From the NCBI GenBank assembly GCA_003344405.1, contig NOWV01000135.1, forward strand, positions 186,001 through 206,518: a DNA stretch of 20,518 bases, given 5' to 3'. This DNA comes from Trichoplax sp. H2 (Eukaryota). Positions 511-20,518 of this stretch are shown here, in pieces. A program made the translations under genes and the position numbers. Under the pieces are notes generated by a model that saw only the letters and a list, made by a program, of their open reading frames with translations, had not been told where the DNA came from and ran no database searches. Numbering within the stretch: the first letter of the stretch is position 1; each line of letters opens with the position of its first letter.

Positions 511-780
511 TGGCACTAACTATATTATTGGAAAAGCTGAATAAAATCATTCATACAGTAGGTGTAAGTTGATCAGCAAGGGGGAAAAGATATAAATAAA
601 TAACTACGTAAACAATCTAGTGCAAGTAATTACGGTAATCTGCTTTGTTTTTCCAGTTGCTAGTATACAAACTCACTGGTCCCTGGTGATTACCCCTAGT
701 GGCGTCTTAAGTGCTAGTAGTCCTACAGTATACCATGGACTAAAGTACAGCACTGTACTCAAAATAGGAATTTTTCAATC

Positions 781-798
781 AATAATAATAATAATAAT
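781..798 (+). repeat. (AAT)6 microsatellite
   Basis: aataataataataataat read directly. Confidence 0.85.
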
Positions 799-842
799 AC
801 TTTCTACTCGTTGATGACAAGTGCAGTATGTCGTCTCCAGTT

Positions 843-1242
843 GTAACTTGAATTGATGAAAAAACGACTGGTTCTATCGAGGAACGTGACCACGTCCAGT
901 TAGACCTGCGGTCCAGTCGATTCCTGTACTGACTGTAGACTGTGTACTCATAGTAATGAGCATGGAGCTTTTTACTGCCTGTTCAATGGTCCAACCACTC
1001 TCATATAGTAGAGTAGACAGTAGGAAAAAGAGGAGAAACTCATTTCAGTCTCAGTGTACAGTAACTTGAATTGATGAAAAAACGACTCAATTCCTGTAGA
1101 CTGTCTACTCATAGTAATGAGCAATGGGAAGGAATGACTTGACATGGAGTTTTTTACTGCCTGTTCAATGTTCCAACCACTCTCATATAGTAGAGTAGAC
1201 AGTAGGAAAAAGAGGAGAAACTCTTTTCAGTCTCACTGTACA
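843..1242 (+). repeat. Imperfect tandem duplication (copy 1 ~843-1060, copy 2 ~1061-1242)
   Basis: Both copies start gtaacttgaattgatgaaaaaacgact. They share actcatagtaatgagca and tttttactgcctgttcaatg-ccaaccactctcatatagtagagtagacagtaggaaaaagaggagaaactc-tttcagtctca-tgtaca. Each copy carries a private insertion. Confidence 0.93.
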
Positions 1243-1282
1243 GTGTACAGTACAATGCACTCTGGCCTAGCCAGCAGGTTGG

Positions 1283-1311
1283 GTCACGTGATCCCCCTGT
1301 CATGTGAGTCA
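1283..1311. promoter_or_regulatory. E-box/CLEAR-like (GTCACGTGAT), M-box-like (GTCATGTGA) and AP-1 (TGAGTCA) motif cluster
   Basis: GTCACGTGAT at 1283-1292, GTCATGTGA at 1299-1307 and TGAGTCA at 1305-1311, all within 30 bp and upstream of the SOCS TATA box. Function is inferred only. Confidence 0.35.
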
Positions 1312-1487
1312 AATCCAGTTTTTCTTTGAATAATTCCAATTTCTTGATTAATTTAAGCGGCGGCTCCTTTGAGCTCCTTTGAGATACTGTGTTAAGGCGT
1401 TCGGACTGTAAGAGGTAGCTTGAATAAATAAGCTATTGTCTACTTTCATCACAAAGACAATAGAACAATCATTCGATAACATTATTA

Positions 1488-1517
1488 TTCCGCGAATAGG
1501 AAATGCGTTTCCAAGAA
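1488..1517. promoter_or_regulatory. Tandem STAT-binding GAS elements (TTCN3GAA) upstream of SOCS
   Basis: TTCCGCGAA at 1488-1496 and TTCCAAGAA at 1509-1517, 12 bp apart and ~30 bp before a TATA box. A third site, TTCTTTGAA, is at 1322-1330. SOCS/CISH genes are canonical STAT targets. Confidence 0.6.
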
Positions 1518-1547
1518 ATTTTAAATATGGGCCGGTGCATCCTGTTG

Positions 1548-1555
1548 TATATAAG
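1548..1555 (+). promoter_or_regulatory. Putative TATA box of the SOCS gene
   Basis: TATATAAG matches TATAWAAR and lies directly downstream of the GAS pair. It predicts a TSS near ~1580. Confidence 0.45.
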
Positions 1556-2171
1556 CTGGTGGAATTTGAAAGTAATTTTATTCTACTCCATGAAAAAATA
1601 AAAAGCCGTACAAGGTAATCTCGTCTCGACGACCAAGATAGCTGCAAAAAAGTGTCTCGTCGGCGCTTTTTGAATGTCTGCAGTCGTTTTGCCTTGTGGG
1701 CTGCATCACTCTAGCGTTTTATCCTAGACTCAACATTGATTTGCAGTAAGAAGAACGAGAAGACAGACGATCCACTACTTTCATTGATTGATGATCATCA
1801 CGCCTTGGAATTCAATCCTATTCTACTGATGGAAATTGATTGAAAAAATTGATTTACGGACTGTAGGATTCTTCTCTATTTCCATTTCAATCGTCGTCGT
1901 CAGTTTTTCAATCTTGATCAAGACAACACTTCAATAGGATTAAGCCTATTGCAACCATCGCCTTATACATAGCAACTGCATCATTTTGGGGGCCATAGTA
2001 AATCAATCATTATCATCGTCTATCCCCAAATTGCTCTTGCGTCGATCTCTATCAACTGATTAACTCATCCACTACAGTCAATTCTGTCGCCTTACCGAAT
2101 CATCATCGTATTACCCTACGTCCAACTCGCAAGACCTGCATTCATTATATTACTCAACCAAATCTTGAGTC

Positions 2172-2753
2172 ATGATTGGCCAACATTCTCATAACGTATT
2201 GGACCATGGGTTGGATCAACAAGCTATCATTAGTATTACCAAAGTGTTGTACATGTTGAAGGAAAGTTGTTGGTATTGGGGCAGTCGATTGACTAGCGAT
2301 GAAGCTAAAAGGATGCTCAAAGCAGCACCTAGTGGCACATTCCTCTTACGGGATAGTAGTAATGAGCGCTACTTATTTGCGCTCACGGTCAAGACCGATG
2401 GCGGTGTTACCAATTTACGCCTCAATTATTGTAAAGGTAGATTTCAATTAGAATCCAACGACGATATCGTCTCTCCAAAATTGCCATCTTTCGATTGCGT
2501 TGTTCAATTGGTCAATCACTATACCCAATCCAAAAGGCGTATATTATATTGCTCAAAGTCATCCAAGACGTCGAATAAACGAAAAGCCATGCTAAAAGTT
2601 GAACTGGCTCAACCCTTTTATAACAATGTCCCTAGTCTACAACATTTATGTCGTAGGGCAGTTCATAGTCAAATGAATTCTGACACCCTTCGTCACTTAC
2701 CTATGGCAAATACCCTGATGCAATACATTATGAAATATCCTCATTCCATTTAA
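2172..2753 (+). CDS. SOCS2: Suppressor of cytokine signaling protein, SOCS2/CISH-like (SH2 domain + SOCS box), single coding exon, 193 aa
   Basis: SH2 signature WYWG...EAKRML...GTFLLRDSS..YLFALTVKT..G.TNLRL.Y..GRFQLES...FDCVVQLVNHY (~2271-2522). C-terminal SOCS box VPSLQHLCRRAV...LP...L.QY...YP (2628-2750). An in-frame TGA at 2166 sits just before the ATG. The family call is certain. The SOCS2 versus CISH label is by-eye similarity only. Confidence 0.93.
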   Translation: MIGQHSHNVLDHGLDQQAIISITKVLYMLKESCWYWGSRLTSDEAKRMLKAAPSGTFLLRDSSNERYLFALTVKTDGGVTNLRLNYCKGRFQLESNDDIVSPKLPSFDCVVQLVNHYTQSKRRILYCSKSSKTSNKRKAMLKVELAQPFYNNVPSLQHLCRRAVHSQMNSDTLRHLPMANTLMQYIMKYPHSI

Positions 2754-5700
2754 ATGGTAGTAGCACACGCTCAACTTGCATCACTCCAAACGCTATCAAG
2801 TGAATAGATTGATAGCCTAAAAGTATAAAGTTGCTTGATCCACATCAAACCGAGCATCAATCTGCCTCTTACTGCTTATATTGTCTATAAATGTACTTTC
2901 AAACATGCTAGAGGAAAAGTTTATTTCAAATCAGCGTGTATCACCGATCGTCAATGACTAAAATTAGACAACTATGATGTAGCTAAGGTGATGGCAGTTT
3001 TTTTTCTCCATATAAAAATAATATTAAGGTAATGATCCAGCATAGCTAATCAGGTTAGTTATATCTTGGATCGACTTCTTTCGTTCTTTGGAAATACTAG
3101 ATCGGAAGTGGGTACGGCTTTCAAGCAAGACAATATGCTATTTATGGCGTTCTTTAAGACGTGCACAATCAGTATACTGCACAGTATTACACAATGTGCA
3201 GTCAATTTGTAGTTCAATTACGACTTTATAATTTTCAACTAGACACTATAGTATGTTAGTGATTGTTGTTATTTGATAATTATTAAATCCATCAAATGGT
3301 TATAGTAATTATACGAGTTATAATGATTGAAAAACTTGATTGTTTCTTCCATTACTCATATTCTCTTTGACCTTAGGAAATCGTCTAGTAAATGGTGATT
3401 GCTAATTACGTATTATATTATTACCATGTCTATGATACGGGACAGTAACATTAACTGTTTGTCATTATTTGGATGAGTTTGTTTTAATGTCTGCTTTCAA
3501 GTCACAGTGTGATCTCAGTACATGAATCAAGTATCCAAGTTCTAAAGCAACTCTTCAATGACTGCTATTCTTAGTAGTAAAGAAAATTTCAAACTAACTT
3601 GTACATTCTGATTCGCAAGGGTAGTACCCTATACATCTGTGATTGAAACTGTCAACGACTGACCAACACCAATGTTCTAAATCTTAATAACTAAGTTTTA
3701 TTAGCAAATTATCTCAATTTATATCAACCAAGTTGTAGGAAGTTTTGTATATTTTGAAAATAATTATACTGTACACAATTGCAAATGTGTATATCAATAT
3801 AACACTACAATTTTTTTGTTCAATTTTATCCAAGATTGTCTCAACTTATTACGTGACAATGCAAAAATTTTTCAATTTTTATTTTTAGCATCGTTTATAA
3901 ACTTCTGCTACATTGATGGCTCATCTTTCATCACTATTCAATCCATAATCATGATTACTGTGTATATAGATAACAAAGTCATCCATTTCTATCAATGGAT
4001 ATAGTGATGTACACCAGCCACAGAATTTATCCCCTATAAAATAGGCTATGGCGTCTTGATCCACTATACATATCTTTACATATCTAATATGTGTTAGGGG
4101 CTGTCATGCCACCATAATTTGTACAATTATTTCTAAACTGATTTTTATCCATGAAATTCTTGTACTGGAGTGTTTGATATTGCTTTTTAAATCTAAATCC
4201 ATCGTCTTATTTATTACTATATTTATATAATGCAATACCTTCTTACTAATGGATTAACTCAATATAATCGTATTTCCATGATTTTGATACCATCAAATCA
4301 AATAAAATACTCTGACTTCGATATTATATCTGCTTGGTCTACATTACAGTATATATTTATTCATATTTAGAAATTGCCTGTCCACTAAAACAGAGTTGTG
4401 CTAGGTTTTGCTAATGTAAAAATACCAAGTAATCCGACTAATTTTTAACACGCGAGTTTGCTTACAAATAGAAAGACGATACTTGCACTAATGTTGAAAC
4501 ATGCCGTAATACACGTTATGTAATGCATGATGGTAACATGCAGTTTATCACATCAAGCAGTATAGTAAGCAAAAAATTTCTTAATAGTATAATCTAACTA
4601 CGATAGCATTACCAATATTTTTTACCTTTGGATGGATCATATCTTACTGCTGGATATTAGGATGTATTTGTACTGCAAGCTACAAATACGTGACGCTAAT
4701 TCAATCCATATGCAAAATAAAGCATACAGGCATGTATATGAAACAATTTAGTGCAGGGTCACAATATCGTTTTTGATTCCAGCTAGCATCCTCGTTTATT
4801 CCTGACATTACTTAATCATTTACTAGTTGCTTAAAATTACCCTAGGTAGTAAAACTAGAATCTCCGTATCTCAACACCATTTTATTTATTACGTCAACAA
4901 GAGCTATAGTAATTATTATAGCTAAGTGTTTCTACTACTCACTCTATCGTCAACTACATGAGGACAATTACCACTTTTGTATAATAATATAAGGTTCAGC
5001 GCACAGCACAGCTTTAATGGTCTTCATTTCATTCATTCTTTCGATTTGGATGGTGTTTTGTGTTTTGATCATTTTTTACTATTTTATTTATTATATTATT
5101 TCATTAGAGACATAGTAGTTATCCAATCCGAATAATACGTTATCTCACTTCAGTTCTCTCGTAATATGATACATTGATTCAATCATACTCGTTAGCAAAT
5201 TTGCTCTATCTTGTATAATTTAATATCAATGCACACAGTAGTTATGCAAGACATCTGCTGTAATGCATCTTTTTATAGCTACCCAGTTAAATATTGATAT
5301 CAAGAAGCTGAAATTGTAATTTTACTCTGTCAACCCACTATTCTACGAAGTGTGCATCATATACGCGCATTAAATCTAGCTCTATAGCTGGAATAGCTCA
5401 GTTTAATCGGCTTATTTTCAATTCACCATAGTTTAAACCAAGGATTCACTAATCATGATAAATGGTTTCCATCATTTATCAATATTAAGGAATTTTGAAT
5501 GGTACATTTATTTCGCTAGAGTCAGATCTGTTGTTAAACATTTTACTGCCCTATTACGACTCTCCGTTAAACATAAACACCCATATTGGTAATAAAATAA
5601 CTTGCTTCTCTTCGTGTTCATTCTTCATGATATGCCAATAAGATTACTGTACAATCTATTGAAGCTTCTTGTGCTGATGCCATGTGTTGATAAGAGACTT

Positions 5701-8700
5701 TTACAGCTACGATTTATTATTATCTCAATAACCTTTCTATCGTATCCCATGGATGGATGTGTATTTCCGAAATAAGTGCAGAAGAGACTATGCAAATATT
5801 TTGATATGAATTTTATTTTTCGATCACTTTGCACAATAAATTTCCACTAAGCTTAATATTTTATCACTCCCACTATCATAGTGAATATGATCACTGTCAT
5901 ACTGCATAAATTTTGTCTGGCTCTGTTGTTGATGTATGTTAGGCAAAAGTAACTCGACGGTATTATTACGGATAAATAATTAACATAAAAATTCGATGTG
6001 ATTGTCATATTATTTAAAATTGTGCACTAAAAGAATGCAAATTTGGTAATAGATAGAGACATTCCGTCAAAATAACAAAAAGTCAACAAAAAATCTTCAT
6101 TGAAGAGCCTTCTATTTTTCAGATTGACGTCATTATGACAAGAAAAAGTCGTAAAAACTATTAAGAAATTATGAAGAGTGAAGATTAAGAGGTATACCAT
6201 TTGTAAATGATTTAAAAGGAATTCTAGATGCTATTGGATATTAAAAAGGTGTAATTTTGGAGAGCATTTTCTTATAATAGATTTTGAAGATCTGATAGGG
6301 ACAGTTAGTAATTCCAGTACGAGTTTAGCAACATTAGAGTTCCATATTCTATGTAAAAATTTGGAGATGATGCATGAAAACGTATCGATCCGTTTATTTG
6401 GTAAAAGAACTGTAGGAAACACTCAGGGCCAAAGTTAAAGCAAATAACTCTAAACGGATTGACATTATACTCAAAATCGACTTCGCTACATCATTGATAT
6501 TTAAGAATTTTGGGATGTTTGTCTACGTAGATAGCAAAAATGGAAAATTACAAATGGGCTACATGGTCACCAATACTCTCTATATTTACTGTAGTAAGAC
6601 ATTGACAGCGAGCACATTTTGATGCTTTCTCAACATGTATCATCGAATAGTACTGATAGGACTAAAAGAATAGAAGTAGCTTGTACAATATACACAATAT
6701 GCCATGAGTATACACTAGGAAAAACATGAGTTTAATCTTCGTCTTCATAGTATTTGTACAGCAGACTCAAATTCTATTGACTTTTTGGAGTCTCTACAGT
6801 AGAAGCAACTAAATTAGAAAAACAGAAGGCAATTAATACTATCTTATTTACTATTCTGCCAAATTATCATATTACTTGCCATTGGTTGATTTTCAACGCT
6901 AAATAGGAAACATAGTGGTCATAATATTTCAACTTAACATATATGTCACGAGATAAAAATGAGATCATTAAAGTTTAAAAATAAAAAAATATGCATGTTT
7001 CGATTGTAAATACAGACGTCATTTTGATCATGTCTATTGCAAGTTCGTACTACGTCAGTAATATAATTACGGATAATATTGTAGAAATTGAGCTTATGTG
7101 CTACAGTATTGTATCGTGTTATGATTGATGTAGAGAATAGATTGTAAATATAACTCAAGTGTTCCATGGAAGATCAACACTAAGGAAGACAGCAGTTTTT
7201 ATTATTTCATTCAACTACAGCCTATAAGAAAATTATCATGACTTTGAGTATATTACATTATGTCTGCCATTCATTTCTGATAAAAATGGAAAATGAAATC
7301 ATTATCTGCAAATCTTTCATCTATTTGGTAGACTTGTAAATGATCGCACATTACATTACACATCTGGATTTTAGTTGTTGGATGATGTTATTCCTCAATT
7401 ATAAAACAACAATAGATTATCCACATTTACCGTAAAAGATGATTACAGTAAATTCCATGCAAGATTGGATTGTCCTGTTGTGTGAGGTATTATCATCTTT
7501 TCAGACAACATAATGATTGATGCTTTTTATTCGTATGCTATTAAATAGAATCACTGAGGTTAACAAAGATCACATTGACCTAGGATACAATTTACCATCT
7601 AATTGTGTAGTAACTAAGAATGTTTTATATCTTTTAATTGTCTATATCGTACAGTGATATTGATAGTAGCGTATATAATATGGATGGTCGTTTTCTAATG
7701 ATGAATAGATTAATTAGGCATCATAAATGTGAATAGGCATGAATCAATATCGATATGCAATATGGCCGTTGATGATATCTAGTTTATAGCTTATTGTTTA
7801 TTGCATATTAACTATTTTAAATTACTAGAATATCATTTCAATCTATAAATGAAGTAGAAACAATTAATCAAAGTAACAACAGCCAGTTGCAACATCGACC
7901 ATCGACGAATACTTTAACAAGTCGAAGTAAGTACCGCTTATTTTGGTCTAATTTGTTCACAACTGCGTAGGTGAAGGGTTTAAAATGATGAAAAGAAATA
8001 CGACATCAATCAATGTAAGTATTAAGCTATTTTCTGCTTAGTTACAAGTGTAGAATGGACTGTGCTGAGGCTCTTAACTCTTAACAGTAGGCAATTATAT
8101 TGTATCTTACAGTTCCAATTTTTTTTCTATCTTTCTATATCACCACGTCAGCTGGTTAGCAAAAAAGACAGTTGTATAAATGAGTGGTCAAGGTATTTCA
8201 TCTCGACATCAGTAAGAATAATATTGCTAAGAATAAAAAAGGTGAAGGGTTACGTAATGCGAATAGGAATATTTTAACTGATTAGTAACATCCTGTTATA
8301 GCTGCAATTATTTCTCGCGGCTTCTATTAAATTGATTTTTGCGATCAATTTTCTCTCATTCTACCAATATCTATCAATCGCATATCATTGTAATAACTAT
8401 GGGGACAAAAGTACTGTCAGGATAAAGAATTATATTTTTTCTCTTCATAAATTATCCTGTTGAATAATGAATGATGCAGCCGACAGTGCTATTAATCTAA
8501 TGAACAATAAAATGAGAGATTATAATGAGATGACGTGATATCCATTAACTATGATCATTTCTAGTAAATCAGTATGTGGTCTACAATAGTTTATTTGATA
8601 TAATGTTTGTTTCATTTTATTTGGATATAGGTTTAAGAATTGTGCTAGGCTTGTTGTTTACAGAAAGAGTATTTCATTACTGCATCATCTGCTCTGAATG

Positions 8701-8949
8701 GTGTGTGCATTATAAAATAGTTAGAGGAAGTTGGTCTGTATACAGTAATAATGGAGTATAGGGATGAAAAGATCTTCAACAATCGCTCTTTTAGACACAT
8801 ATTGTATATAAATGAATGAATCTTAAAATAAAATTAATGTAATAGCATGGGGAAAGACCGCCCTCATTCGAGTCCTGTAGTCTTGAATTTTTAAACATTC
8901 TTCATAGGTGTCATGCGCTTTCTCACTATTTTCAATAGCCAACTTAAAT

Positions 8950-9395
8950 CATGGATCACTAGTTCTCTACAAATAATTGTTACTTTTTATTTTCTAGTAG
9001 TCCATGTCTTGAATAGTTTAAATTTAATTTGGATTTCACTACTTTATCCGTTACCATGAATAGTATTGCAAATTAATAGATTCCAATTGGAAAGTATATT
9101 AGCATTCTCATGGCATATGGACATAGATCTTCTTAAATTCTAATTGAATACAATAATATAGCATAGGCTGCTCTTTAGAGTGTTTCTGCTAGTTCTTTAA
9201 CTTTTAAATACCGTTCATTCATGTATGATAGCACCCTTGATTTATGGAAAACTAAAGAAAAATCTTACATTTTCTTTTAATGGTCCATAACTTGAATAGT
9301 AAGGGTTAAAAGCTTATTTTACCATCTCTATACTTGAATTATGAACAACTAGAGAACAATCTTACATTTTGTTTTAGTAGCCCATAATTTGAATG
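8950..9395. repeat. Three degenerate copies of a ~50-60 bp imperfect hairpin element
   Basis: Copies at 8950-9006 (catgga..actag...ctagt..tccatg), 9242-9290 (ttatgga..taaagaaaa atcttaca ttttctttta..tccataa) and 9337-9389 (aattatg..actag..aacaa tcttacat tttgttttagt..cataatt). Each is followed within a few bases by ttgaat. Confidence 0.55.
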
Positions 9396-12300
9396 TTCAG
9401 TATTAAGATCTTATTCCACCACCTCATCAATTTATCATAGCATAAAAAATAGTACAAGTTACAGTAGATGATGTAAATTGGCCTGTATAGAGCAATAATG
9501 TACATATTACAGAGTACCGGTAATTCTTCATTCTCAACTTTTTGTACAAGTAGTTTCTTACATATTGCGAAATATCTATACAGGCTACAGAGATAAACTA
9601 TAAAATGCTGATATTTGATTCCGTTGATCATATTTTCACTATCGTATGTACCTAGGTCTAATTTTAGACTGCTAATTCATGTATTGTTACGCATAATGCT
9701 CCGTTGGTGAACTACTGAGGTTAATTTATTATAAGATGTACAAGTTCAGTTAGAAAGTGTGGCAGATGCAAGCAAATACCGTAGGTCCACTTGGTCATAT
9801 TGATGATAGATTGTACAGTAAGGATATAGAATGATATTGAATAATATTGTTGAATGAGAAATTTAGTAGTTACAGTTCAAATAACGCAGACTGTAGCAAT
9901 CATATCTGACTAGGCCTTGCCATTAGTAAAATATGTAGGCTAACTGACTCAAATTTAGTGCCATAAATGATAGTAAATAGATAGAATGGCAAATTTACAA
10001 TTGCCTAATAGATTATATATATATATACAGACAGGTAATCCAGCTCAAGTTTTTAGATTGTTAGGTTCTACTCCTAGCTGATATTCAATTAGTAACCATT
10101 ATTAAGCTGCGAAAAATACATTGTACAGTAAAGCTCAATAAAGGACTTTAAGCATACTGTATTTCTAATAAAGTGAGATATGTCTCATATAATTCACTTA
10201 ACTTTCGTGATGTAACTTACTATTAAGAAATATAGTATACTTTCGTCCGTAGTCTATATGTTTCTCACGTACTATAGACCACAAAAGATTTTAATATAAT
10301 AGATTAGTAGTCATAATGAATACCTAAAAATAGATCAAAAGTTTAGTATAGTAAATCGTGCATAGTTGTCTTTTGTGGTATATCACTAATAAGTCGTACC
10401 ATTAAAAAACATTTAATTCATACGTACTATAAGCCATAGAAATTACACTGTGCTGTATAAGCTATATCAGTGATAATGCATATTTTGGTTCTATATTTCG
10501 GTATACGCCTTCACTAGACTCTGGTATACGCTATCAAGCTGTGCAATTTGTTGAAATAATCCTATAAGAGTCATTGATATATTTTAGCGTCCATCATCCA
10601 AATGCAATCTACAACGAAAATAAATAATCTGTGATGATAAATGCAAGTGTTTTGTTACAAATAACATACTGTAATATGATTGATGCCGAAAAGTTAATCG
10701 AGAGTAATTCTAGTCAAGGAAATGCATAACAGGGCGACTTTCAGAATTTGCCTATTTTACGTTTAGGCAATCTATACTGCGTAAACTCACCGCTCAGGAC
10801 GCAACATGAACGCGTTAATGATATCTATACGTGTTGAAATGAACTTCATCAGTACAATTCTAAATATGCCTTATGTAAGTTAATTATTTTGTATTCTCAA
10901 GACTTAAAATGACGATGCTAATGCTATAGTTTTGAATTTGACTTGATCATTGCCACTTATCCAGTATTGACTTGTCTAGGTCTCATCGATGATACCGTCT
11001 TGCGCTACAAGTCTAAATTATTTCACTTTAATGTAGCCATGTCACATTTAGTTATCCATAATAGATTAACTAAGAATGAGCTGAAAGGGCTAATCACTTT
11101 GCAACATAAGAATAATAAAATAATCCAATTTAAATTTCATGTATCCACAGAGGATGAATACATTGTGTCTCGTATTTACAATATATGATGTTCAGACGAT
11201 AATGATAACTTACTCTTTATGCACTCGGTAATCAATATCAGAAAATTGAAGGTTTAAAAAAAGCCGTTTAATAATGTTGAAAGTTACTATTTAAAAAAAG
11301 GACTGCAATAACTACTCATGCGTGAACTCATTCAATTTCAATTACTGTACAGATCATGGATGACATTTATATACAATATCTTGCTGATAAACAGGACATT
11401 GTGTGCCATTACATCCCTAAGTGAATAGGAGAATCCAATCGATACTAAAATCCTATTGACCAGAAATATCTGTCCAGAGCATAGCGGAAATCTTTTCATT
11501 GATATTTGTATAAGGCATTTTTTATTGTATCAGAAATCGATCATCACCAATTTAAATATAAGAAAGGAAAACATTAAAAATATGCTTTTACTATCACGTG
11601 CAACGTTTTCTTGTTTAGTAATATATCAAGACAACATTGGCAATAAATTTAATAATTTATGTTTCATACGAGGCAGTCGTGTTAGCTTATACCCGTATAA
11701 TGAATGATATGTATACATATATATATAGATAAATATACTGCACATATATACAGTATATACCTTTTATAAGTTATAATTTTTATATAGTATCAATGAATTA
11801 TAGTTGTGAACGTTATCAACTCCAATTTTAGATCATTTAATATCGAAGCACTATTAAGCATAAAATTTACCCAAACTACTTCTGTAGTACTTGAAAAATT
11901 ATAATATATAAAGAGTGATCAATAAAGAAGTGATAATTAACAAACACGCTTTCACATGGCAGCATCAGGTCACGGCATCAAGATATACCGTGTTTTTTTT
12001 CTATGAAATGCAGTCACAATTACCTTTCGCTAAATTCGTCAAATTGAATTGGCTCGAGGACAGAAAACTTTATAGTTATTACAATATTTAGCAGTTTAAT
12101 CAGTTAAATATATTGCACTAGTGAAATATTAATTATTACTATTCCTAATTTACATCTTATAATGCGTAATAGTGTGTTATTCAATTAAACAAATTTCGTA
12201 ATATGCTTATAATGTCATCTTAATTGCACTGCAAGATTACTATAAATGTTATAAGCTCTAATTTCATTTCAAGATCATATTCTCAAGATGCATTGATTAT

Positions 12301-12928
12301 TATTTTCAATCATCACTAACTTAAATAACGTTATTAAACATCTCTAGTTAATACGTACTTAGATATATACATATGCTGTAAATATATACAGCTATATTAT
12401 ACATAGATACAGTGTTAACCAAAATATACCGTTAGGAAATCACTTGAAATTTAAAAAATTGTACATATTCGTATACTGATGTCAGGCCAAACTTATTTAG
12501 CAAGTGAACACATTGATGTCATTCAGCTTATTATTTAGAAGACAAGTATACATAGAGAAATTGTGTTAACGGCAGTGTGTTGCATGCGGACGGTTATAAA
12601 AAACTAGTCTATATAAGCAAGATGTACATAAATAATATCGACTGATTAGCCATTACACGTCTAAGTTTAATTAACGTCACATTAGGTGTATATTAATTTT
12701 TAAAGGCATTGATATAATAAATATCCACGTAAACGTATCACAAATAATAGATATCTAGTTCGTAACTGCATTCGTGCAAGTACATAATTGTGGTGTAATA
12801 TAAAATTTAGATAAATCTTAAACTCATCTTTATCAGGATGATATGCATTGTTACTTTAAGCTTTCGTTGTAAATTTATAACGAAAGATACATCGTTAGAT
12901 GTAATTCATTGATGTTATAAATACAGGT

Positions 12929-12934
12929 TTTATT
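12929..12934 (-). terminator. Candidate polyadenylation signal (AATAAA) for CLEC16A
   Basis: tttatt on the + strand, ~145 nt downstream of the CLEC16A stop codon. The hexamer is common in AT-rich DNA. Confidence 0.3.
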
Positions 12935-13077
12935 CCAGTGAATATCAATATAAGATATAAATAATTTTTCTTCCGAGATATTAAGACGGGTAGATTTTAT
13001 ATAAAATTTTATGTACTGTACAAGTATACCTGGCCTTCTACGTATTAGCCAAGATTGAGTAAAACTGCACTAAAAAT

Positions 13078-13821
13078 TTAATTTGTATCATTTCTTAACT
13101 CCTCAATGTTGTTGTCTGAATCCCCATCTACTGCATTTTTTTGTGCAGAATTACCTTTTAAAGGAGGTAATAACCTAACTGAATCATTATTACCTAAGTT
13201 TGCAGTTCCTAGGGAGCGATTTAGACTTCCTTTCAAAGACATATCTTCACTAATTTCATTTCCAGACGTTATTTCGAATACAGGGGAAGGAGGTAATAGT
13301 TGTACATTAGAAGCGGAAATTTCACTTTTATCTGTTGCTTTGTTGACAAAGGCATCGCTGTTGCTGCTTTGTGTTTGTACAGTTGCTTCATCTGTAACTG
13401 AATCATTATTAGAGCGACTATTATCGATGGTAGATTCATCCAGTTTCAACTCATGTTGAGGTTTCGGTGCTTCATTAATAATTGTAGAAAATTCTTCAGT
13501 TACAGCGGGTTTCATTTGCAAATCGGATGTGGAATCATTTTTTATAATATTAGCAGCATCATTGGCATTTGCGGCCTGGTTTGCTGCTGAAAATGAAATG
13601 CCTAGCACTTGCCCAAGTTGATATAATTTCTTCTGTCTGACGATAAGTCGACCTCCTTTTAAACGCTGTCTAGCAACACTACAGTTGATATGGTCAGTGA
13701 AAACAAACTTTGCCGTTAACATGGACAAAGTACCGCGACTAATAGCAGTTGCAGTTGAGGTTTGCCGTATACTAATTTGAAGAGATTTGTTGTCATCACG
13801 TTCGCTGGACACTTCCACGTC
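13078..13821 (-). CDS. CLEC16A: CLEC16A terminal exon: [20 protein letters not shown]...[18 protein letters not shown]...ELRNDTN*
   Basis: actaaag| acceptor, 744 nt to TAA. A conserved block is followed by a Ser/Asn/acidic tail. Confidence 0.9.
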   Translation of the reverse strand, partial: DVEVSSERDDNKSLQISIRQTSTATAISRGTLSMLTAKFVFTDHINCSVARQRLKGGRLIVRQKKLYQLGQVLGISFSAANQAANANDAANIIKNDSTSDLQMKPAVTEEFSTIINEAPKPQHELKLDESTIDNSRSNNDSVTDEATVQTQSSNSDAFVNKATDKSEISASNVQLLPPSPVFEITSGNEISEDMSLKGSLNRSLGTANLGNNDSVRLLPPLKGNSAQKNAVDGDSDNNIEELRNDTN

Positions 13822-16800
13822 CTTTAGTAAAAATAACGACACCGACAAAGTTATAGTTTATATTACATTAATATCTTGAACTGAATGAAACTTAAAGCAA
13901 AGAATATATAAATCCATCAACAATTTGAAGGATTTATCATTATACCTGCAAGTTTCCAACAAAACGAACAATACCCCATCCATATTTCGTTGAATCTGTA
14001 TCAACCAAGATAAACTGTGTTTCTCTAATAGCTAGAAAGCGTCGGACCATTCTAAAAATTAAATTTTAAGAAATTTTTAACGTTAATGGTACAAATAATA
14101 CCAATAAAACAAAATCAATTCAGCTTAGTATTACTTTTCGCTCGTTATGACATGGCAAGCTATTAAATCGATATTGCCTAGTATTAAAATAAGAAGCAAA
14201 CGTTATTTGCGCGTTAATACGCAATTATTTCTTGATTTGTTAGAAAGAAATATTCAAATGATATGCTCACACATAGAAGATACTGTGTGAGGGGATATAT
14301 TACTAACTTAATTCCAAAACATCTTTAACATTTATTGATCCAATAATATCAAATAGCGATAGATTGTTATTTCTTGTTCCTTCGAACTTGTTAACTAATT
14401 TTCTGGTCATTAAGTAGATTCTCATAGCCTTAAGCATATAGCAGAGTATAAATTAAGATTAAATTCAAGGATCTCATCATTTAATGATAGTTAGCAATGT
14501 TATTAGCTTACTCGGCGTGCCCTTTCTATTGAATTACAAGGTAAACGTTTAGAAAATTCTATAGTGGTAATTGAGGAGCGGCTGTAGGGAAGTAGCAACG
14601 ATCCGTCCATGATTAGCTTACTAATTCCAATAGGCTTGTTATTCTAGTATACGAAGTTTATTAAAAACATTGATTATTAAGTATTTAAAACCCTAATAGT
14701 ACATTTCAAGAGTGTAATATCTTCATACGGCAAACCTTTAAACTCCGGTATTCATCCTCAAACATGTCTAAGAATACATCTTCCACCTTTATTTAACGCC
14801 ATCATATTACAAAAGAGTACTACTGTTAGTTTCGTATGATCAGTAACCAAGAATGTTTTAAAAATTTAGTTAGAATTCGGAATTACCGTATAAAATACCC
14901 TTAGTTGCTCAGCAGAAAGTTCTAGTACCCTCTATGCAATAACAACAGATTGAAATGCAATATCAACATAAGCTGCCAACATAGACATTATCAATTTGCT
15001 AAACAGTTAATCTAGCAATTAAATACTTATTGAATGTTAAAACTAACGTAAAGTGATTGCACATGATTTTCACAAAGCAATCGCGCATTTGAATGAGGAT
15101 TTATAGATAGGTGTTCCAAAGTTCTAATTAAAACTTCAAAGGTAACAAGACGGGTATGGCTTTCTGTTTAATGGGATAAAAACCAATATTAAGTGATAGC
15201 TTTAAATTGGCATTACAGCTATCGTTACATCTATTATTCAAGTATAACTTTGTAACCTTGAGAGCAAGACATTTCAGTAATGCTGAATAGTTTTTCAACA
15301 AGTTCATAATGATGAGGAGCCTCCTTGCGTATAAAATATTAGAGAAGATACATTCATATTTTTTCAACAATATGAGCACATAAAATTTATTACCGCTTTA
15401 GGCGTTTCTCCTAACGGTAGAAGGTTTTTTAACAAACTTGGGGATATACCTTGTAGTAGAGATAGAGTATAAACACAATCATTTCAGTATAAAAAGCTCT
15501 ATTAAATAAAATAGAATTAATATCTTACCTTTAGTTTCCAAAATGCCATTTACTAAAATTAATATAAAAAGTATAGCAGTATCTTCATCGCTACTTTCAA
15601 TATACTTTAGCAATTCTTTCCAGAACAGCGTTGAGCTTCTGCAAAATTGATAGTTACAGTCAGTATAGCGATTGATACGAGCAAAACGCAGTAGCACAGT
15701 TAAAGAGGAAGCGCATATTTAATTGAAGCAATTTAAGGTCGCATTCAACATTAGTACAGTATAATTGGCGTACCTATTATTTAGTTGTCCCTGCATAACA
15801 ATCAAAAAATATGAATAAGTATAGAAATATTTAGAACATAGAAAATGCAAGACTATTTAATTACCTCGACAGTAGATAGATTATCCGTCGCTTCAGTGGC
15901 TAATAATAAAAAAAAATTTCGATAAAGATGATGAGCCGCTTTATGCATTTGCAATAGGTTCATAGTTGATAACTTACATTCAGAATTTGCGTCATCGCAA
16001 ATGTTCGAATTTTTTTCAACAGCTGAATCGATCAACGATCCATTTTCTGTGTTGATCTCGGAAGGCCATCCAGAATCAGCAGTTAAAGTTGACGTAGATT
16101 TCAGTGTTGATAAGGAGTTCTCATCCAGTTGGTTGTCAATTTTCGACATCGCCGATGAGCTTGCATCTGATTGGTTATTAGAATTTTCTTCATCTTGCCG
16201 CTGCTCAATTTCTGTTGTTGTGCTAGTGCCAACGTCGGAAAAGCTACTCTCACTGTCCGAAGAAACACTAAGCTCATCAGAAGAACTTTCTGGAAAAAGA
16301 AACTGATCTCCGTCGAAGCTAGTATTGACGGTAGCTGTAGTAGTCTTGACTTTGAATGCAGATAATGTCTGACTTAAGCCTTGTTGTGGAGGCCCAAAGA
16401 CGCGGTAACAGCCAAGTAATGATACGCTTCTCTTTTTCATCTTTGGGAATGTTAAAAGTAATTACTTCGATAGCTGTCAAATGATCAATGAAAAATAACT
16501 ATATTGTAATAAAATTTTGTACATACTAAGCCTGAAGAAGTATTACTGCTAGCATCTGACGATTTATGAGCTTTCGCCATTAGAATAGATTCCTCGCCAT
16601 ACAGTACAATATCGCAAAGGCAAGAGATCAGCGGTCGATAGGAAATAATATAGAATATCTATAACAAAATATAATCATATATAAGGAATATAATTTTTAG
16701 TTAATAACAAAAAATACCAATTATGTTAACTGCAAATATTCTAGACTGTATCTTGAAGATATATAATAATTGCATAGCTGTAGTATAAAGACATACTTCA

Positions 16801-19800
16801 CTCGAACTGTGATCCATTTTTATGCTTACATGATAATATACTGTAGTGTAAGTTAGCCAATAAAAAGAACTATAAAAACAATGTCCAGCATTTACCTGAG
16901 AGAGTAAATAAATGGCAATGGCAGGATGAATTCTAGTTTTCGCGCTCTGGAAGATTAAAATAGTACATTTATTGTGAGTTTTTAAAATTTTGAACTCAAC
17001 TACAGTTAAATCGACAATCAATTAAACTTGTACAATAAATGTATAAATAATAAGTTAGATTAAATCTTACTTGGCCGTTGTCGCCATCGTCTCTTGGCAT
17101 TTCTTGAGTAAGCAAGGAATTAACATACAAGGGAATTATCAATCGATTGAGTAGTTGATCTGTTAAGATACTATTTAAGCAGCCGATATTAAGACAATAA
17201 ATGTCGTTGATATAGTGTAAATGATCCACATGTTCAGCAACGAGATCTTTTAATCTTGAACAATTTGATAAACTATATCAAAAATTATGACGCATATATT
17301 AGTGCACATATCCTTATAATATTTACTATGGTCCTGAAAAAGAAAACAGTATCTGATCTAAAGAAAGCAAGAAGGATTTTTGACTAACCTAGATTTAATG
17401 CGATAAGTATCAATCTGCAAAGTTACATTTCCAATCGACCATGCTAAGCTAGAAAAGTACGGAATAGCGGTTCGATTTCGAATAAATCGTAACATCGGAG
17501 GATCAGCAACTGTTAAGTGTAACAAACAAATTGTGTATAGCATAAACACATTATAATCAGTAAAATGAAAATAGCTGCAATTCTCTCTATACATGCGTTT
17601 GATATATATAAATAACATACAATACAGCATACAGGGTGTATCCAGTAAATATACTCGTAAGTGATGTAGTACCTCTGAAAACATTTAAGGTGAGTGTTCT
17701 AACGGCCGTACGGACCATACTCTCGCTGTGATCAAAAAACTTGATTGCTTCGGTGTATAAAGGAAAATTTTGTTGATGCTAACATATGTAATACAAAAAA
17801 AGCCAACTTACGTAATGCTCAAATAATACTTCATGAACAGATGAAATACTATAGGTGGTGTATACGTATAAAGGGTGATAGAGAAAATGTATGTCATAAT
17901 ATTCTATGTATGAATATGTCGTTTATTGAAGTGGGGTATCATATTATTAAAGAGTATATTATTTTCTCAGATTTACGTCTACAGTTGACTATTATTATAA
18001 TGCATACAAATAGGTAACATTCACACAAGTAACGATGACATTAGGTTAAACTAGTTGTTACAATGTAATTTTTAATTGAAATTGCATCCAAGTTATACAG
18101 AATACGAGTATAGTAGTATTATTATGAAATATCGATTGTGAGTACCTCATTGTAGAAGAAATGGATTGTGTCTTGATCCAATTTTAAAGATAGAGTTTTC
18201 AGTATAGAAATATAGTACGCTAGTGTCTGAAATATAAGCCGTTAAACAATTAGTAGTGCCCTTATTAACTGAACCTTCGATGAGAATTCTATACTTGTTT
18301 ATTTATCCGTTCTACGTACCTCATCATCGGAAAAGTCATATTTATAAACAATTACATTATTGATATGGTTATTGGATAGCAAATAATCTGAAAAGATCAA
18401 CATTAAGTGAAGCAATTAAGACCCACGTAAATAAATTTCTTTGGGGTAATAATACTCGTCATTAACTATTTCCTGAATCAGTGATGACTGTCATGTAAAT
18501 AATACTAAACTGCTAGTTATAATATAGTACCGTATAATTAAAAGCGAAGGTTGATTTTATAGCATGATATGCAACATCTGCGCACATTGTAAAGATGACA
18601 TTAAGGCAATATCATTTTCAATGTTCATCATATCAATTAAAAATTAATGTTTAACTTACATAAAGAATTTCTATTTCGAAGATTTTCCAGCAAGATATTA
18701 ATTGTTTGCAATAATTGAACTCGTACAATCTGTGATTTTTGCTCCAAGAATCTTATTAATAGTGACAACATGTTCTTCTCGGCGAATAAGCTATAAAGGC
18801 AATCATGGTTATAGACTTATAGATATTGTTTTCATTGACACACACCTGAGTATAATATTTTGAAATATATCGGCAACACCGAACTTATGAAGTGTATTGC
18901 AAGACACCCTACTACTAAAAATGAGCATGTCATATTTATCCTAATCATAAGCATATCAAATAGCTCTAGTTAAAATATTTATAGGTAGTAATGGAATCAG
19001 TGGTATACATCCATCCAGTAGTTGCTGTAAATATTTATCGCAAAAGGGGGAAGCCATGAAGGCAATAAAAATTTCCCGTATAAATGACTCCACTAAATAT
19101 GAGTACATGACTATAATTACATCTAAATTAACCAAAGCGAGAATTGATCGAAGAAAAGTTATTCCTACAATGTAACATCTTACAATTATAATATCTTGAT
19201 ATTTGTTGTCGTTGTAAGATTTTTCTCGTATAGTACAATGATCAAACTACTTGCTGTCTATTTTTCGTACATGCCATAATAACACATTGCATTCAATTGA
19301 AAAATCTTTACTACTTCCTGCTACAAGGATAATTTTCAAACAAGTTAGTTTTACTAGTAGTAAAGTAAAAAGTGACGAAAGGAGTTTTGTGCATTTCAAC
19401 TAGCATTATAATGCTAGTTGTGAAGTCATTACCCTCCATGCCTTCTCCTAAACATAGGATATACGAGAAACTTTCTTGCATGTTATATCAACATTGATGT
19501 TATTTTGCTCAATCAAACTGGATTCAGTAATTGGATAGAAAATGGAAAATCGCAACAATATGGTATTGAAAGGAATCAACATTCTACTCTTAATATTATA
19601 AATAAATATTACTATCACAAACAGGTTTAAAATGTTATGGTTAAACTATTTACAATTGCTTTCTTTTACCGATAAGAGTTGCTAAGACATCTTATCTTCC
19701 ATTGCTCGAATGTTATTTATTGTAGATGATCGTGATAATCTCAGTATCATGTCCTAAGGACAATACATTATATATCAAGACAGCAGCAAGGGTATTTTAT

Positions 19801-20229
19801 ACTGATAAAGTAATGGCAATTATGATTCATGATAGCCAGGCAAAGTCTCATTCCATGTGATACAATATACAGTAAGTTTAAATTGTATCGAAACGAACGA
19901 GTGAATTCAACTATTTCTACTGGTGGTCAAAAAATGTCTTTTGATGAAAGGGAAAGTCTTATTGATTTTTGACAAGCTGAATGCTGTCCTACTATTTTAT
20001 CATCATTTGTCTATATACATACAGTATCCATCGTACACGATTATGACGCTAGTTGGATGGAATTTTCCAAGACTATTCATTGTTGACAAAATGAACTTAC
20101 TCAAATATTCTTCCATCGTGTTGATCACCCCAGATAATAATTTCTGCCATAGAACGCAAGGATTCAACGATTAATCCTCGATTGCGGTCAGTAACGGTAA
20201 TGTTTTTCAACAAGACGGTATATAAATGC
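13078..20229 (-). CDS. CLEC16A: CLEC16A / gop-1 / ema family endolysosomal trafficking-autophagy protein (N-terminal FPL domain), 22 exons in the window, 5' exon missing
   Basis: The spliced translation is open for 3205 nt and every intron is GT-AG with matching phase. Hallmark blocks: [132 protein letters not shown]. All closely match human CLEC16A as recalled. Confidence 0.95.
13946..14051 (-). CDS. CLEC16A: CLEC16A exon: [35 protein letters not shown]
   Basis: tttttag|...|gtataa, 106 nt. Confidence 0.92.
14135..14177 (-). CDS. CLEC16A: CLEC16A exon: [13 protein letters not shown]
   Basis: atactag|...|gtaata, 43 nt. DLIAC is conserved. Confidence 0.88.
14308..14428 (-). CDS. CLEC16A: CLEC16A exon: [40 protein letters not shown]
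   Basis: gcttaag|...|gttagt, 121 nt. Confidence 0.88.
14512..14643 (-). CDS. CLEC16A: CLEC16A exon: [44 protein letters not shown]
   Basis: atactag|...|gtaagc, 132 nt. Confidence 0.9.
14736..14786 (-). CDS. CLEC16A: CLEC16A exon: [17 protein letters not shown]
   Basis: aataaag|...|gtttgc, 51 nt. [11 protein letters not shown] is highly conserved. Confidence 0.9.
14887..14931 (-). CDS. CLEC16A: CLEC16A exon: [15 protein letters not shown]
   Basis: tgcatag|...|gtaatt, 45 nt. Confidence 0.82.
15048..15163 (-). CDS. CLEC16A: CLEC16A exon: [38 protein letters not shown]
   Basis: taaacag|...|gttagt, 116 nt. RLVTFE corresponds to the conserved RLATLE. Confidence 0.82.
15257..15323 (-). CDS. CLEC16A: CLEC16A exon: [22 protein letters not shown]
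   Basis: acgcaag|...|gttaca (weak donor), 67 nt, phase-consistent. Confidence 0.75.
15394..15449 (-). CDS. CLEC16A: CLEC16A exon: (G)[18 protein letters not shown]
   Basis: ctacaag|...|gtaata, 56 nt, phase-consistent. Confidence 0.78.
15529..15638 (-). CDS. CLEC16A: CLEC16A exon: [36 protein letters not shown]
   Basis: tttgcag|...|gtaaga, 110 nt. Confidence 0.85.
15774..15790 (-). CDS. CLEC16A: CLEC16A 17-nt microexon (GQLNN-R)
   Basis: tgttatgcag|GGACAACTAAATAATAG|gtacgc. It converts phase 0 to phase 2, as the flanking exons require. Confidence 0.75.
15865..16440 (-). CDS. CLEC16A: CLEC16A large exon (Ser/Thr/acidic internal low-complexity region): MKKRSVSLL...DNLSTVE
   Basis: cccaaag|...|gtaatt, 576 nt open frame (ORF 15853-16440). 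Confidence 0.82.
16527..16658 (-). CDS. CLEC16A: CLEC16A exon: [44 protein letters not shown]
   Basis: gttatag|...|gtatgt, 132 nt, phase 0/0. Confidence 0.85.
16896..16946 (-). CDS. CLEC16A: CLEC16A exon: [17 protein letters not shown]
   Basis: cttccag|...|gtaaat, 51 nt. Matches the conserved ..LYLLSQ block. Confidence 0.88.
17071..17272 (-). CDS. CLEC16A: CLEC16A exon: [67 protein letters not shown]
   Basis: gatatag|...|gtaaga, 202 nt. Confidence 0.9.
17389..17509 (-). CDS. CLEC16A: CLEC16A exon: [39 protein letters not shown]
   Basis: ttaacag|...|gttagt, 121 nt. Confidence 0.9.
17673..17778 (-). CDS. CLEC16A: CLEC16A exon: [35 protein letters not shown]
   Basis: atgttag|...|gtacta, 106 nt. 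Contains the FPL motif. Confidence 0.93.
18146..18226 (-). CDS. CLEC16A: CLEC16A exon: [27 protein letters not shown]
   Basis: atttcag|...|gtactc, 81 nt. Confidence 0.93.
18320..18387 (-). CDS. CLEC16A: CLEC16A exon: [22 protein letters not shown]
   Basis: ttttcag|...|gtacgt, 68 nt. Confidence 0.93.
18660..18790 (-). CDS. CLEC16A: CLEC16A exon: [43 protein letters not shown]
   Basis: tttatag|...|gtaagt, 131 nt, FPL domain. Confidence 0.93.
19397..19420. repeat. Perfect 24-bp palindrome in the largest CLEC16A intron seen
   Basis: caactagcatta|taatgctagttg is its own reverse complement. Confidence 0.9.
20101..20229 (-). CDS. CLEC16A: CLEC16A exon (first found in window): [42 protein letters not shown]
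   Basis: tttttag|...|gtaagt, 129 nt. It begins mid-codon, so an upstream exon is required. Confidence 0.93.
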
Positions 20230-20518
20230 CTAAAAATGAATGTCATGGTCAATTTTTACATCCTTTTGACTGTTTTTTTTATTCATAAATTGAAGGCAAG
20301 TCATTGAAGGGTGCTAAATTGTCATGGGTGTAATCCTATATTGGACTATTTTTGATGGCTAAAGAGGCTTGTCGAACTGGTGGATTACCATTTTCTTTTA
20401 ACACATGTTTAAGTGGCTCAGCAAGAGTGTCCAATACTACAGTATACTGTATAGTTGTACGCATACATACTACTCGTCTAGATCATGCTATGGAGATCAG
20501 ATTGAAGCAGTGTAACTA

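Follow-up and report, generated by a model that had tools for sequence, protein, structure and literature searches.

The genes for CLEC16A, a regulator of endolysosomes and autophagy, and for SOCS1 are neighbours in the CIITA-DEXI-CLEC16A-SOCS1 locus of human (16p13.13) and zebrafish; in human they stand tail to tail. SOCS1 belongs to the type II SOCS proteins, SH2 adaptors that bring phosphotyrosine proteins to an elongin-cullin ubiquitin ligase. The same kind of neighbourhood, CLEC16A beside a type II SOCS gene, occurs in the placozoan Trichoplax sp. H2, within a stretch of 20,518 nucleotides (hereafter the window; contig NOWV01000135.1, positions 186,001 to 206,518 of the forward strand). 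The placozoan locus differs from the vertebrate one in that its SOCS gene is, to judge by similarity, an unduplicated SOCS2-like precursor, in a spacer of about 10 kb, and in a CLEC16A gene spanning about 7 kb; the human spacer measures tens of kb, and human CLEC16A is far larger than that of Trichoplax. None of CIITA, DEXI and the protamine genes was seen in the window. The vertebrate socs1 gene has been assigned by its synteny with NUBP1, CIITA, DEXI and CLEC16A in zebrafish and human (PMC3296744). At the human locus it is debated whether the autoimmune risk variants of CLEC16A act via CLEC16A, DEXI or SOCS1. If CLEC16A and a gene of the SOCS1 lineage have stood tail to tail since pre-bilaterian times, their linkage is older than adaptive immunity, and, to judge by the window, older than CIITA as a neighbour, and an ancient shared cis-regulatory or 3'-end relationship becomes testable in small genomes (Trichoplax, Nematostella, octocorals). 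The interest of the pair is moderate and comes from the medical weight of the human locus.

Two classes of conserved neighbourhood, and one class of gene, offer comparisons. Conserved ancestral microsyntenic pairs (CAMPs) are likewise unrelated neighbours kept across deeply split phyla, non-bilaterians included; they are defined by presence in at least four of 11 lineages with at most four intervening genes (Irimia 2012, PMC3514665). The pair described here is adjacent in Placozoa and Cnidaria, and in vertebrates according to PMC3296744, while the brachiopod evidence consists of contigs of the same size. It differs from the class as described in that survey in being convergent, an orientation not enriched among the pairs (PMC3514665). 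The invertebrate 'SOCS2-like' genes (crab, shrimp, molluscs, Lingula, amphioxus, Nematostella) have the same architecture and best similarity as the Trichoplax SOCS gene, the product of which, at 193 aa, is among the shorter members. The bystander genes of genomic regulatory blocks have long introns rich in conserved non-coding elements. Human CLEC16A is bystander-like, its intronic variants tracking the expression of DEXI and SOCS1 (PMC3634488), whereas the introns of Trichoplax CLEC16A are short (median 108 bp, maximum 1310 bp).

The pair is probably a further case of the CAMP class, and may already be tabulated in supplements. CLEC16A, SOCS and KIAA0350 do not occur in the main text of Irimia 2012 (PMC3514665), nor are CLEC16A and SOCS mentioned in Robert et al. 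2022 (PMC8851819); the supplementary lists of both may hold the pair. Full-text searches of the literature returned nothing joining CLEC16A with Trichoplax, or CLEC16A and SOCS1 with microsynteny, and CLEC16A together with Nematostella in Liongue 2012 (PMC3296744) alone. Kamm 2019 (PMC6321704) makes no mention of SOCS, JAK or STAT.

The convergent gene pair of Trichoplax

The two genes face each other across an AT-rich spacer, and their features are as follows.

1577-4254, + strand: SOCS transcript without splicing (5'UTR about 600 nt, 3'UTR 1.2-1.5 kb), from RNA contigs
2172-2753, + strand: SOCS coding sequence, 193 aa, with short N-terminus, SH2 domain and C-terminal SOCS box; by similarity type II, SOCS2-like
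4255-11514, no strand: AT-rich spacer (31% GC), no recognisable gene, patchy low-depth RNA contigs
11515-13080, - strand: CLEC16A 3'UTR and stop codon (13078-13080), from RNA contig ends
13081-20229, - strand: CLEC16A coding exons 2-24 (23 exons, 1041 aa), from Pfam matches, RNA joints, introns placed by reading frame, and homology
15774-15790, - strand: CLEC16A micro-exon of 17 nt, from RNA contigs of two runs, with loose ends in a third
18791-20100, - strand: outsized CLEC16A intron of 1310 bp, from the reading frame of the flanking exons and homology

These models draw on assembled contigs of three RNA-type runs (X15, X18, X19) and one DNA run (X5), aligned over 519-20518; being assembled, such contigs cannot rank expression. 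The original prediction of a SOCS gene with a short N-terminus on the + strand, converging with CLEC16A on the - strand over some 10 kb without a recognisable gene between them, is confirmed. Both genes are intact and expressed. The RNA contigs of the SOCS gene in X18, X19 and X15 start at 1576, 1577 and 1622 and end at 3340, 3943 and 4254, with zero joints, and since those of all three runs cross the region unspliced the gene is intronless. Poly(A) signals near the 3' end are AATAAA at 4301 and ATTAAA at 3282. The SH2 domain (Pfam E 6.4e-10, 39.4 bits, cut-off 21) and the SOCS_box (E 2.9e-7, 31 bits, cut-off 23.5) both exceed their curated cut-offs. The arginine motif that binds phosphotyrosine (FLxRDS) is kept, GTFLLRDSS aligning with SOCS2, and this string is invariant in the SOCS alignment used for the locus scan below. 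The SOCS box contains a BC box (pattern S-L-x-x-x-C-x-x-x-V/I), its SLQHLCRRAV aligning with that of SOCS2, while the Cul5-box sub-motif LPxP reads LPMA and is thus kept in part only. The shortness of the N-terminus is seen in the SOCS2 alignment, which includes the helix before the SH2 domain and yet begins at residue 19-22 of 193, ending at 190.

The Trichoplax protein is of type II (the CIS/SOCS1-3 group) by its sequence similarity. Its bit scores against structures in the Protein Data Bank (PDB) are 115 for SOCS2, 81 for SOCS3, 63-70 for SOCS1, 54 for SOCS6 and 44 for SOCS4; no CISH structure is among the PDB matches listed. A HMMER search returned 1495 SOCS relatives at E <= 0.001, and names were surveyed for 30 of the best 150 representatives. 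Twelve of the 30 are called SOCS2, SOCS2-like, SOCS3-like or CISH-like, five have uninformative names, 13 are nameless, and none bears a SOCS4-7 name. The named type II relatives come from fish, deer, hagfish, Ptychodera, chiton, shrimp, locust, Xenia, Lingula and amphioxus. A grouping with SOCS4-7, which would have spoken against the comparison with the human pair, is therefore not what is found. A maximum-likelihood tree of 24 rows, rooted on a SOCS4-type sequence and built without a named vertebrate SOCS1, has clades that track species groups (Trichoplax with an 81%-identical relative 99/98, octocorals 100/99, protostomes 95/92, vertebrate SOCS2 100/98) on a backbone that does not resolve. 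In a FastTree of 128 matches, from which 25 partial rows were dropped, the Trichoplax branch likewise lies within a polytomy.

According to Liongue 2012 (PMC3296744), invertebrates and Nematostella have a single socs1/socs2/socs3/cish intermediate ('SOCS2-like'), which two vertebrate genome duplications split into four genes. On similarity, the Trichoplax gene corresponds to the one SOCS2-like precursor from which CISH, SOCS1, SOCS2 and SOCS3 of vertebrates derive. As it predates the duplications (PMC3296744), the correspondence to SOCS1 claimed here is one of position only. The proposed match to the human CLEC16A-SOCS1 pair therefore stands in so far as CLEC16A lies beside a type II SOCS gene, and fails in so far as that gene is SOCS2-like rather than a specific orthologue of SOCS1. 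Narrow orthology to SOCS1 was considered and rejected, SOCS2 outscoring SOCS1 (115 against 63-70 bits). SOCS1 would then have retained the ancestral genomic position and SOCS2 the most ancestral-like sequence, a distinction that helps in naming and in reconstructing the SOCS family.

CLEC16A is identified by pieces of two Pfam domains on the - strand, FPL (PF09758) at 20097-20255, 18637-18816 and 17587-17778, and CLEC16A_C (PF19439) at 16996-17277 and 13078-13857. It is about 99% identical to TRIADDRAFT_53756 of T. adhaerens, with 7 residue differences across the shared exons, and is 100% identical in the exon 17071-17271. The genome is thus placozoan, that of T. adhaerens or a very close relative, in keeping with the earlier view of a non-vertebrate with tiny introns. 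The 17 introns nearest the 3' end are RNA-contig joints (15, plus two that flank the micro-exon), reading CT..AC on the + strand. The five 5'-most introns were placed from reading frame, GT-AG sites and the consensus of homologues, and the exon junctions so obtained on the 5' side agree with a consensus of eight CLEC16A proteins. Each of the 22 introns has GT-AG borders; apart from the one of 1310 bp they measure 70-367 bp (median 108 bp overall). RNA contigs end on the 3' side at 11515 (the long form), 12484 and 12587, and AATAAA occurs on the - strand at 11521-11526 and 12929-12934.

The distance from stop to stop is 10,324 bp, and that between the RNA contig ends some 7,260 bp. The GC content of the window varies from 26 to 41% in 1-kb windows and is about 30% across the middle. 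Among the 61 stop-to-stop open reading frames (ORFs) of at least 38 aa that overlap 3300-13000, none reaches a Pfam cut-off, and the one sub-threshold match, at 17 bits, is of the kind expected by chance. The spacer has no Rfam match, and a tRNA scan found none. Its RNA contigs are patchy, at a depth of 0.5-6.4, and are indistinguishable from DNA carry-over. The DNA run X5, from another study and under another organism label, covers all 30 bins at a depth of 19-56 with colinear contigs, including 4020-7161 and 9309-16732, and there is no sign of an assembly break; among the X5 pieces listed, unbridged gaps of 50-75 bp occur at 7161-7235 and 7711-7768.

The pair in other animals

Metagenome contigs provided a cnidarian comparison. 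Anchoring on SOCS matched 224 stretches, of which 98 encode relatives and 80 loci were kept; these were searched for CLEC16A by tblastn with nine proteins, and again with 131 proteins (E <= 0.1). In both runs CLEC16A was matched at two of the 80 loci, L002 and L003. A match at a third locus (L029; 30 aa, E 0.098) was rejected as noise. L002 and L003 are 99.9% identical and represent two assemblies of one organism. On L003 the SOCS frame (+) runs to 927 and the final exon of CLEC16A (-) ends at 1341, so that the genes stand tail to tail with their stops 413 bp apart. L003 is without a 254-nt CLEC16A intron that is present in L002 and is therefore a spliced, RNA-derived contig, which still spans both genes.

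The organism is an octocoral, since the CLEC16A piece is 91% identical to that of Dendronephthya gigantea, against 70% to Nematostella, Actinia and stony corals, and the SOCS protein is 64% identical to SOCS2-like of Xenia, with which it groups at 100/99 support. Its PDB scores (SOCS2 103, SOCS3 75, SOCS1 52, SOCS6 51, SOCS4 45 bits) repeat the type II profile of the Trichoplax protein. A locus with the same record-name prefix as the octocoral contigs served as a control (L064): it is of SOCS4 type (195 bits to SOCS4, 65 to SOCS2), lies in a long open frame of 442 aa, in contrast to the short N-terminus in Trichoplax, and has as its neighbour not CLEC16A but an ORF in which many leucine-rich-type repeats can be seen by eye. 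Poly(A) signals in the octocoral spacer at 1160 (+) and 1074-1079 (-) predict that the convergent 3' ends overlap by roughly 100 nt (L003:925-1340).

In the brachiopod Lingula anatina, the contig given for SOCS2 and the one given for CLEC16A both measure 1,837,862 bp, so that the two genes probably share one scaffold, about 0.5% of that genome. Linkage was thus found in one of the three bilaterian invertebrates with both proteins placed. Contigs of prokaryote genomes were also scanned with the SOCS and CLEC16A alignments for eukaryote contamination, and yielded nothing.

Age of the linkage and reasons for its persistence

The convergent SOCS-CLEC16A linkage very probably predates bilaterians. 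Adjacency in the octocoral, the vertebrate synteny (PMC3296744) and the Lingula linkage together argue for an ancestral convergent pair that was later lost in some lineages. It is considered highly likely that the pair was present before the placozoan, cnidarian and bilaterian lines split and that, after duplication, the SOCS1 copy alone kept CLEC16A. Ancient regulatory blocks are described as mostly retained in single copy (PMC7530604), and the sole retention of CLEC16A by SOCS1 fits that pattern. An age greater than that of bilaterians, proposed originally from the Trichoplax window, is in this way well supported by the convergent octocoral pair and the Lingula linkage.

Why the pair persisted is a separate question. 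In the ancestor, a type II SOCS gene and CLEC16A would have been transcribed toward each other, and through the two vertebrate genome duplications CLEC16A would have stayed beside the SOCS1 copy only. If the 3' ends and the intervening DNA were regulatorily entangled, breaks between the genes would have been selected against. Candidates for such entanglement would be enhancers used by both genes, or insulation, located in the spacer and towards the 3' end of CLEC16A; compact genomes might show it as physically overlapping 3'UTRs, and the predicted overlap of 3' ends is the obvious candidate in the octocoral. The introns of Trichoplax are too small for the classical bystander model, so that any shared elements would there have to lie in the long 3'UTRs, the intron of 1310 bp or the spacer. 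Cis-regulatory constraint has been invoked for the established class of conserved non-paralogous pairs (PMC3514665). At the human locus, single-nucleotide polymorphisms in the CLEC16A region correlate with SOCS1 and DEXI expression, and CLEC16A and SOCS1 are reported as co-expressed in thymus and lymphoblastoid lines (PMC3634488). Persistence through regulatory or 3'-end entanglement is the explanation favoured here, tentatively, at a little short of an even chance.

Several observations weigh against an ancient, regulatorily maintained pair. The SOCS and CLEC16A transcripts of Trichoplax do not overlap but end about 7.3 kb apart, and enhancers in CLEC16A introns fit poorly with introns of 108 bp median length and with the 413-bp octocoral spacer. 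Convergent orientation is, as noted, not enriched among conserved pairs (PMC3514665), and chromosome conformation capture (3C) in three human cell lines is reported to have shown no loop between CLEC16A intron 19 and SOCS1 (PMC3634488). The equal contig sizes in Lingula speak for linkage within 1.84 Mb and not for adjacency. The locust Schistocerca serialis cubense has its SOCS2/CISH-like gene on a chromosome of 639,668,871 bp and CLEC16A on one of 1,163,909,630 bp, and the linkage appears to have been lost. In one assembly of Branchiostoma belcheri the two are on different scaffolds, the CLEC16A-like gene on a contig of 4,871,909 bp and the SOCS2-like gene on contigs no longer than 3,940,229 bp. 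The expectation of adjacency in intermediate lineages is thus borne out in the octocoral but not in the locust, nor in this amphioxus assembly. Finally, 78 of the 80 metagenome SOCS loci are without CLEC16A, with flanks that are mostly too short to tell: in the 45 near-full matches (35 partials excluded) the downstream flank has a median of 1,143 bp and reaches at least 2 kb in ten and at least 8 kb in two. Because their contigs are too short, most of the 78 are not counted as absences. Among 128 downstream ORFs (at least 70 aa) of the seven loci whose flanks are longest, two matched Pfam, namely a second SOCS gene (L005) and, 3.4 kb downstream of SOCS, an exon with a PBD domain (L006).

The strongest competitor is that the pair is ancestral but was kept neutrally, by slow rearrangement in placozoans, cnidarians, brachiopods and vertebrates and by the scarcity of harmless breakpoints in short spacers, with no functional coupling at all. 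The loss of the pair in a fast-rearranging insect, its not being seen in one amphioxus assembly, the mere 413 bp of the octocoral spacer and an orientation outside the class enriched for co-regulation (PMC3514665) would all be expected on this account, and shared regulation is itself hypothetical. Against it, the stop-to-stop spacer of 10.3 kb in Trichoplax offers ample room for breaks, as do the tens of kb in human, and the pair is still intact. Survival in four deeply split lineages is also unusual, the 2012 survey reporting just 595 non-paralogous pairs that satisfied its four-lineage rule (PMC3514665). Neutral persistence is a serious possibility, ranked just behind entanglement. As to the entanglement itself, a bolder form can be stated, in which antisense overlap or a shared terminator or insulator coupled a brake on phosphotyrosine signalling to a regulator of endolysosomal trafficking, locked the pair together for more than 600 million years and lies at the root of the cis-effects of human CLEC16A-SOCS1; this is unlikely.

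An unrecognised gene, for a lineage-specific protein or a long non-coding RNA, in the 7-10 kb of spacer is a quite improbable alternative. It could account for RNA contigs of low depth, found in the bins 5855-7855 (X19, 1-6.4) and 7856-8522 (X15, 4.9; others at most 2), and the scan covered ORFs of at least 38 aa against Pfam alone. However, the ORF, Rfam and tRNA results given above are all negative, none of the spliced joints listed falls in the spacer, and carry-over of genomic DNA may be the source of the low-depth contigs. An intervening orphan would, moreover, leave the linkage standing.

That the genes came together independently in Trichoplax, octocoral and vertebrates is less probable still. 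The Trichoplax case alone is weak, since any pair of neighbours resembling a human one could have been noticed (the look-elsewhere effect). The octocoral, however, was tested after the hypothesis had been stated, and the same orientation recurs; the chance of a given convergent downstream neighbour is of the order of 1 in 10,000 per genome by our own arithmetic. Together these make a chance reunion very unlikely, as does the single contig size of the Lingula genes, about 0.5% of the genome. Mis-assembly as the sole cause of the join can be set aside, since the repeats at the window ends, where another run's DNA contigs fray (with loose ends at 1234-1253 and at 20435-20455), lie outside the pair, and the X5 contigs are colinear, with even depth over all 30 bins.

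Gene model details and minor observations

The original prediction ended CLEC16A at 20229. This is a genuine exon boundary but not the start of the gene: an RNA contig goes on at 20230 into sequence outside the window, and the first coding exon must therefore lie beyond 20518. The micro-exon was recognised from 14 letters between joints at 15640 and 15864 in X18 and X19, with loose ends in X15, and its borders are canonical after the permitted shift. Within the 1310-bp intron the RNA depth is 0-3.6 in the bin 19195-19861, and an X15 contig (depth 3.8) covers 19440-19959.

The 2008 model TRIADDRAFT_53756 appears to be wrong at its N-terminus. In the region 17389-20229 it starts with pieces from inside the 1310-bp intron, is without the conserved N-terminal exon 20101-20229, and skips an exon (18146-18226) that eight other CLEC16A proteins conserve. 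The SOCS gene, for its part, may be absent from the 2008 T. adhaerens gene set or from the named protein set. Its 90% protein cluster has one member within the length range searched, from the window's own contig (206,518 bp), and surveys based on the 2008 Trichoplax annotation may for this reason have missed it. The nearest relative is an 81% identical protein on a 2.8-kb contig.

At the metagenome locus with a second SOCS gene (L005), the two genes, each with SH2 domain and SOCS box, are themselves convergent, at 4867-5349 (+) and 7021-7734 (-), about 1.7 kb apart.

In Trichoplax, three low-depth RNA contigs, ending at 4254, 6293 and 8919, have similar short loose letters at those ends (CAAACACA or its complement), perhaps an artefact of the library or a short repeat that is common. 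Mid-spacer, at 9236-9425, a 93-nt unit occurs in two tandem copies that are 78% alike. Apart from these and the local tandem repeat at 933-1244, no repeats were found flanking the pair. The window ends (1-1260 and 20435-20455) are repeat-rich, with runs rich in TACAGTAC-like words and, as said, the tandem duplication (933-1244). Another run's DNA contigs fray, or jump between 1234-1254 and 20435-20455, a pattern that points to an interspersed repeat family flanking the gene pair on either side.

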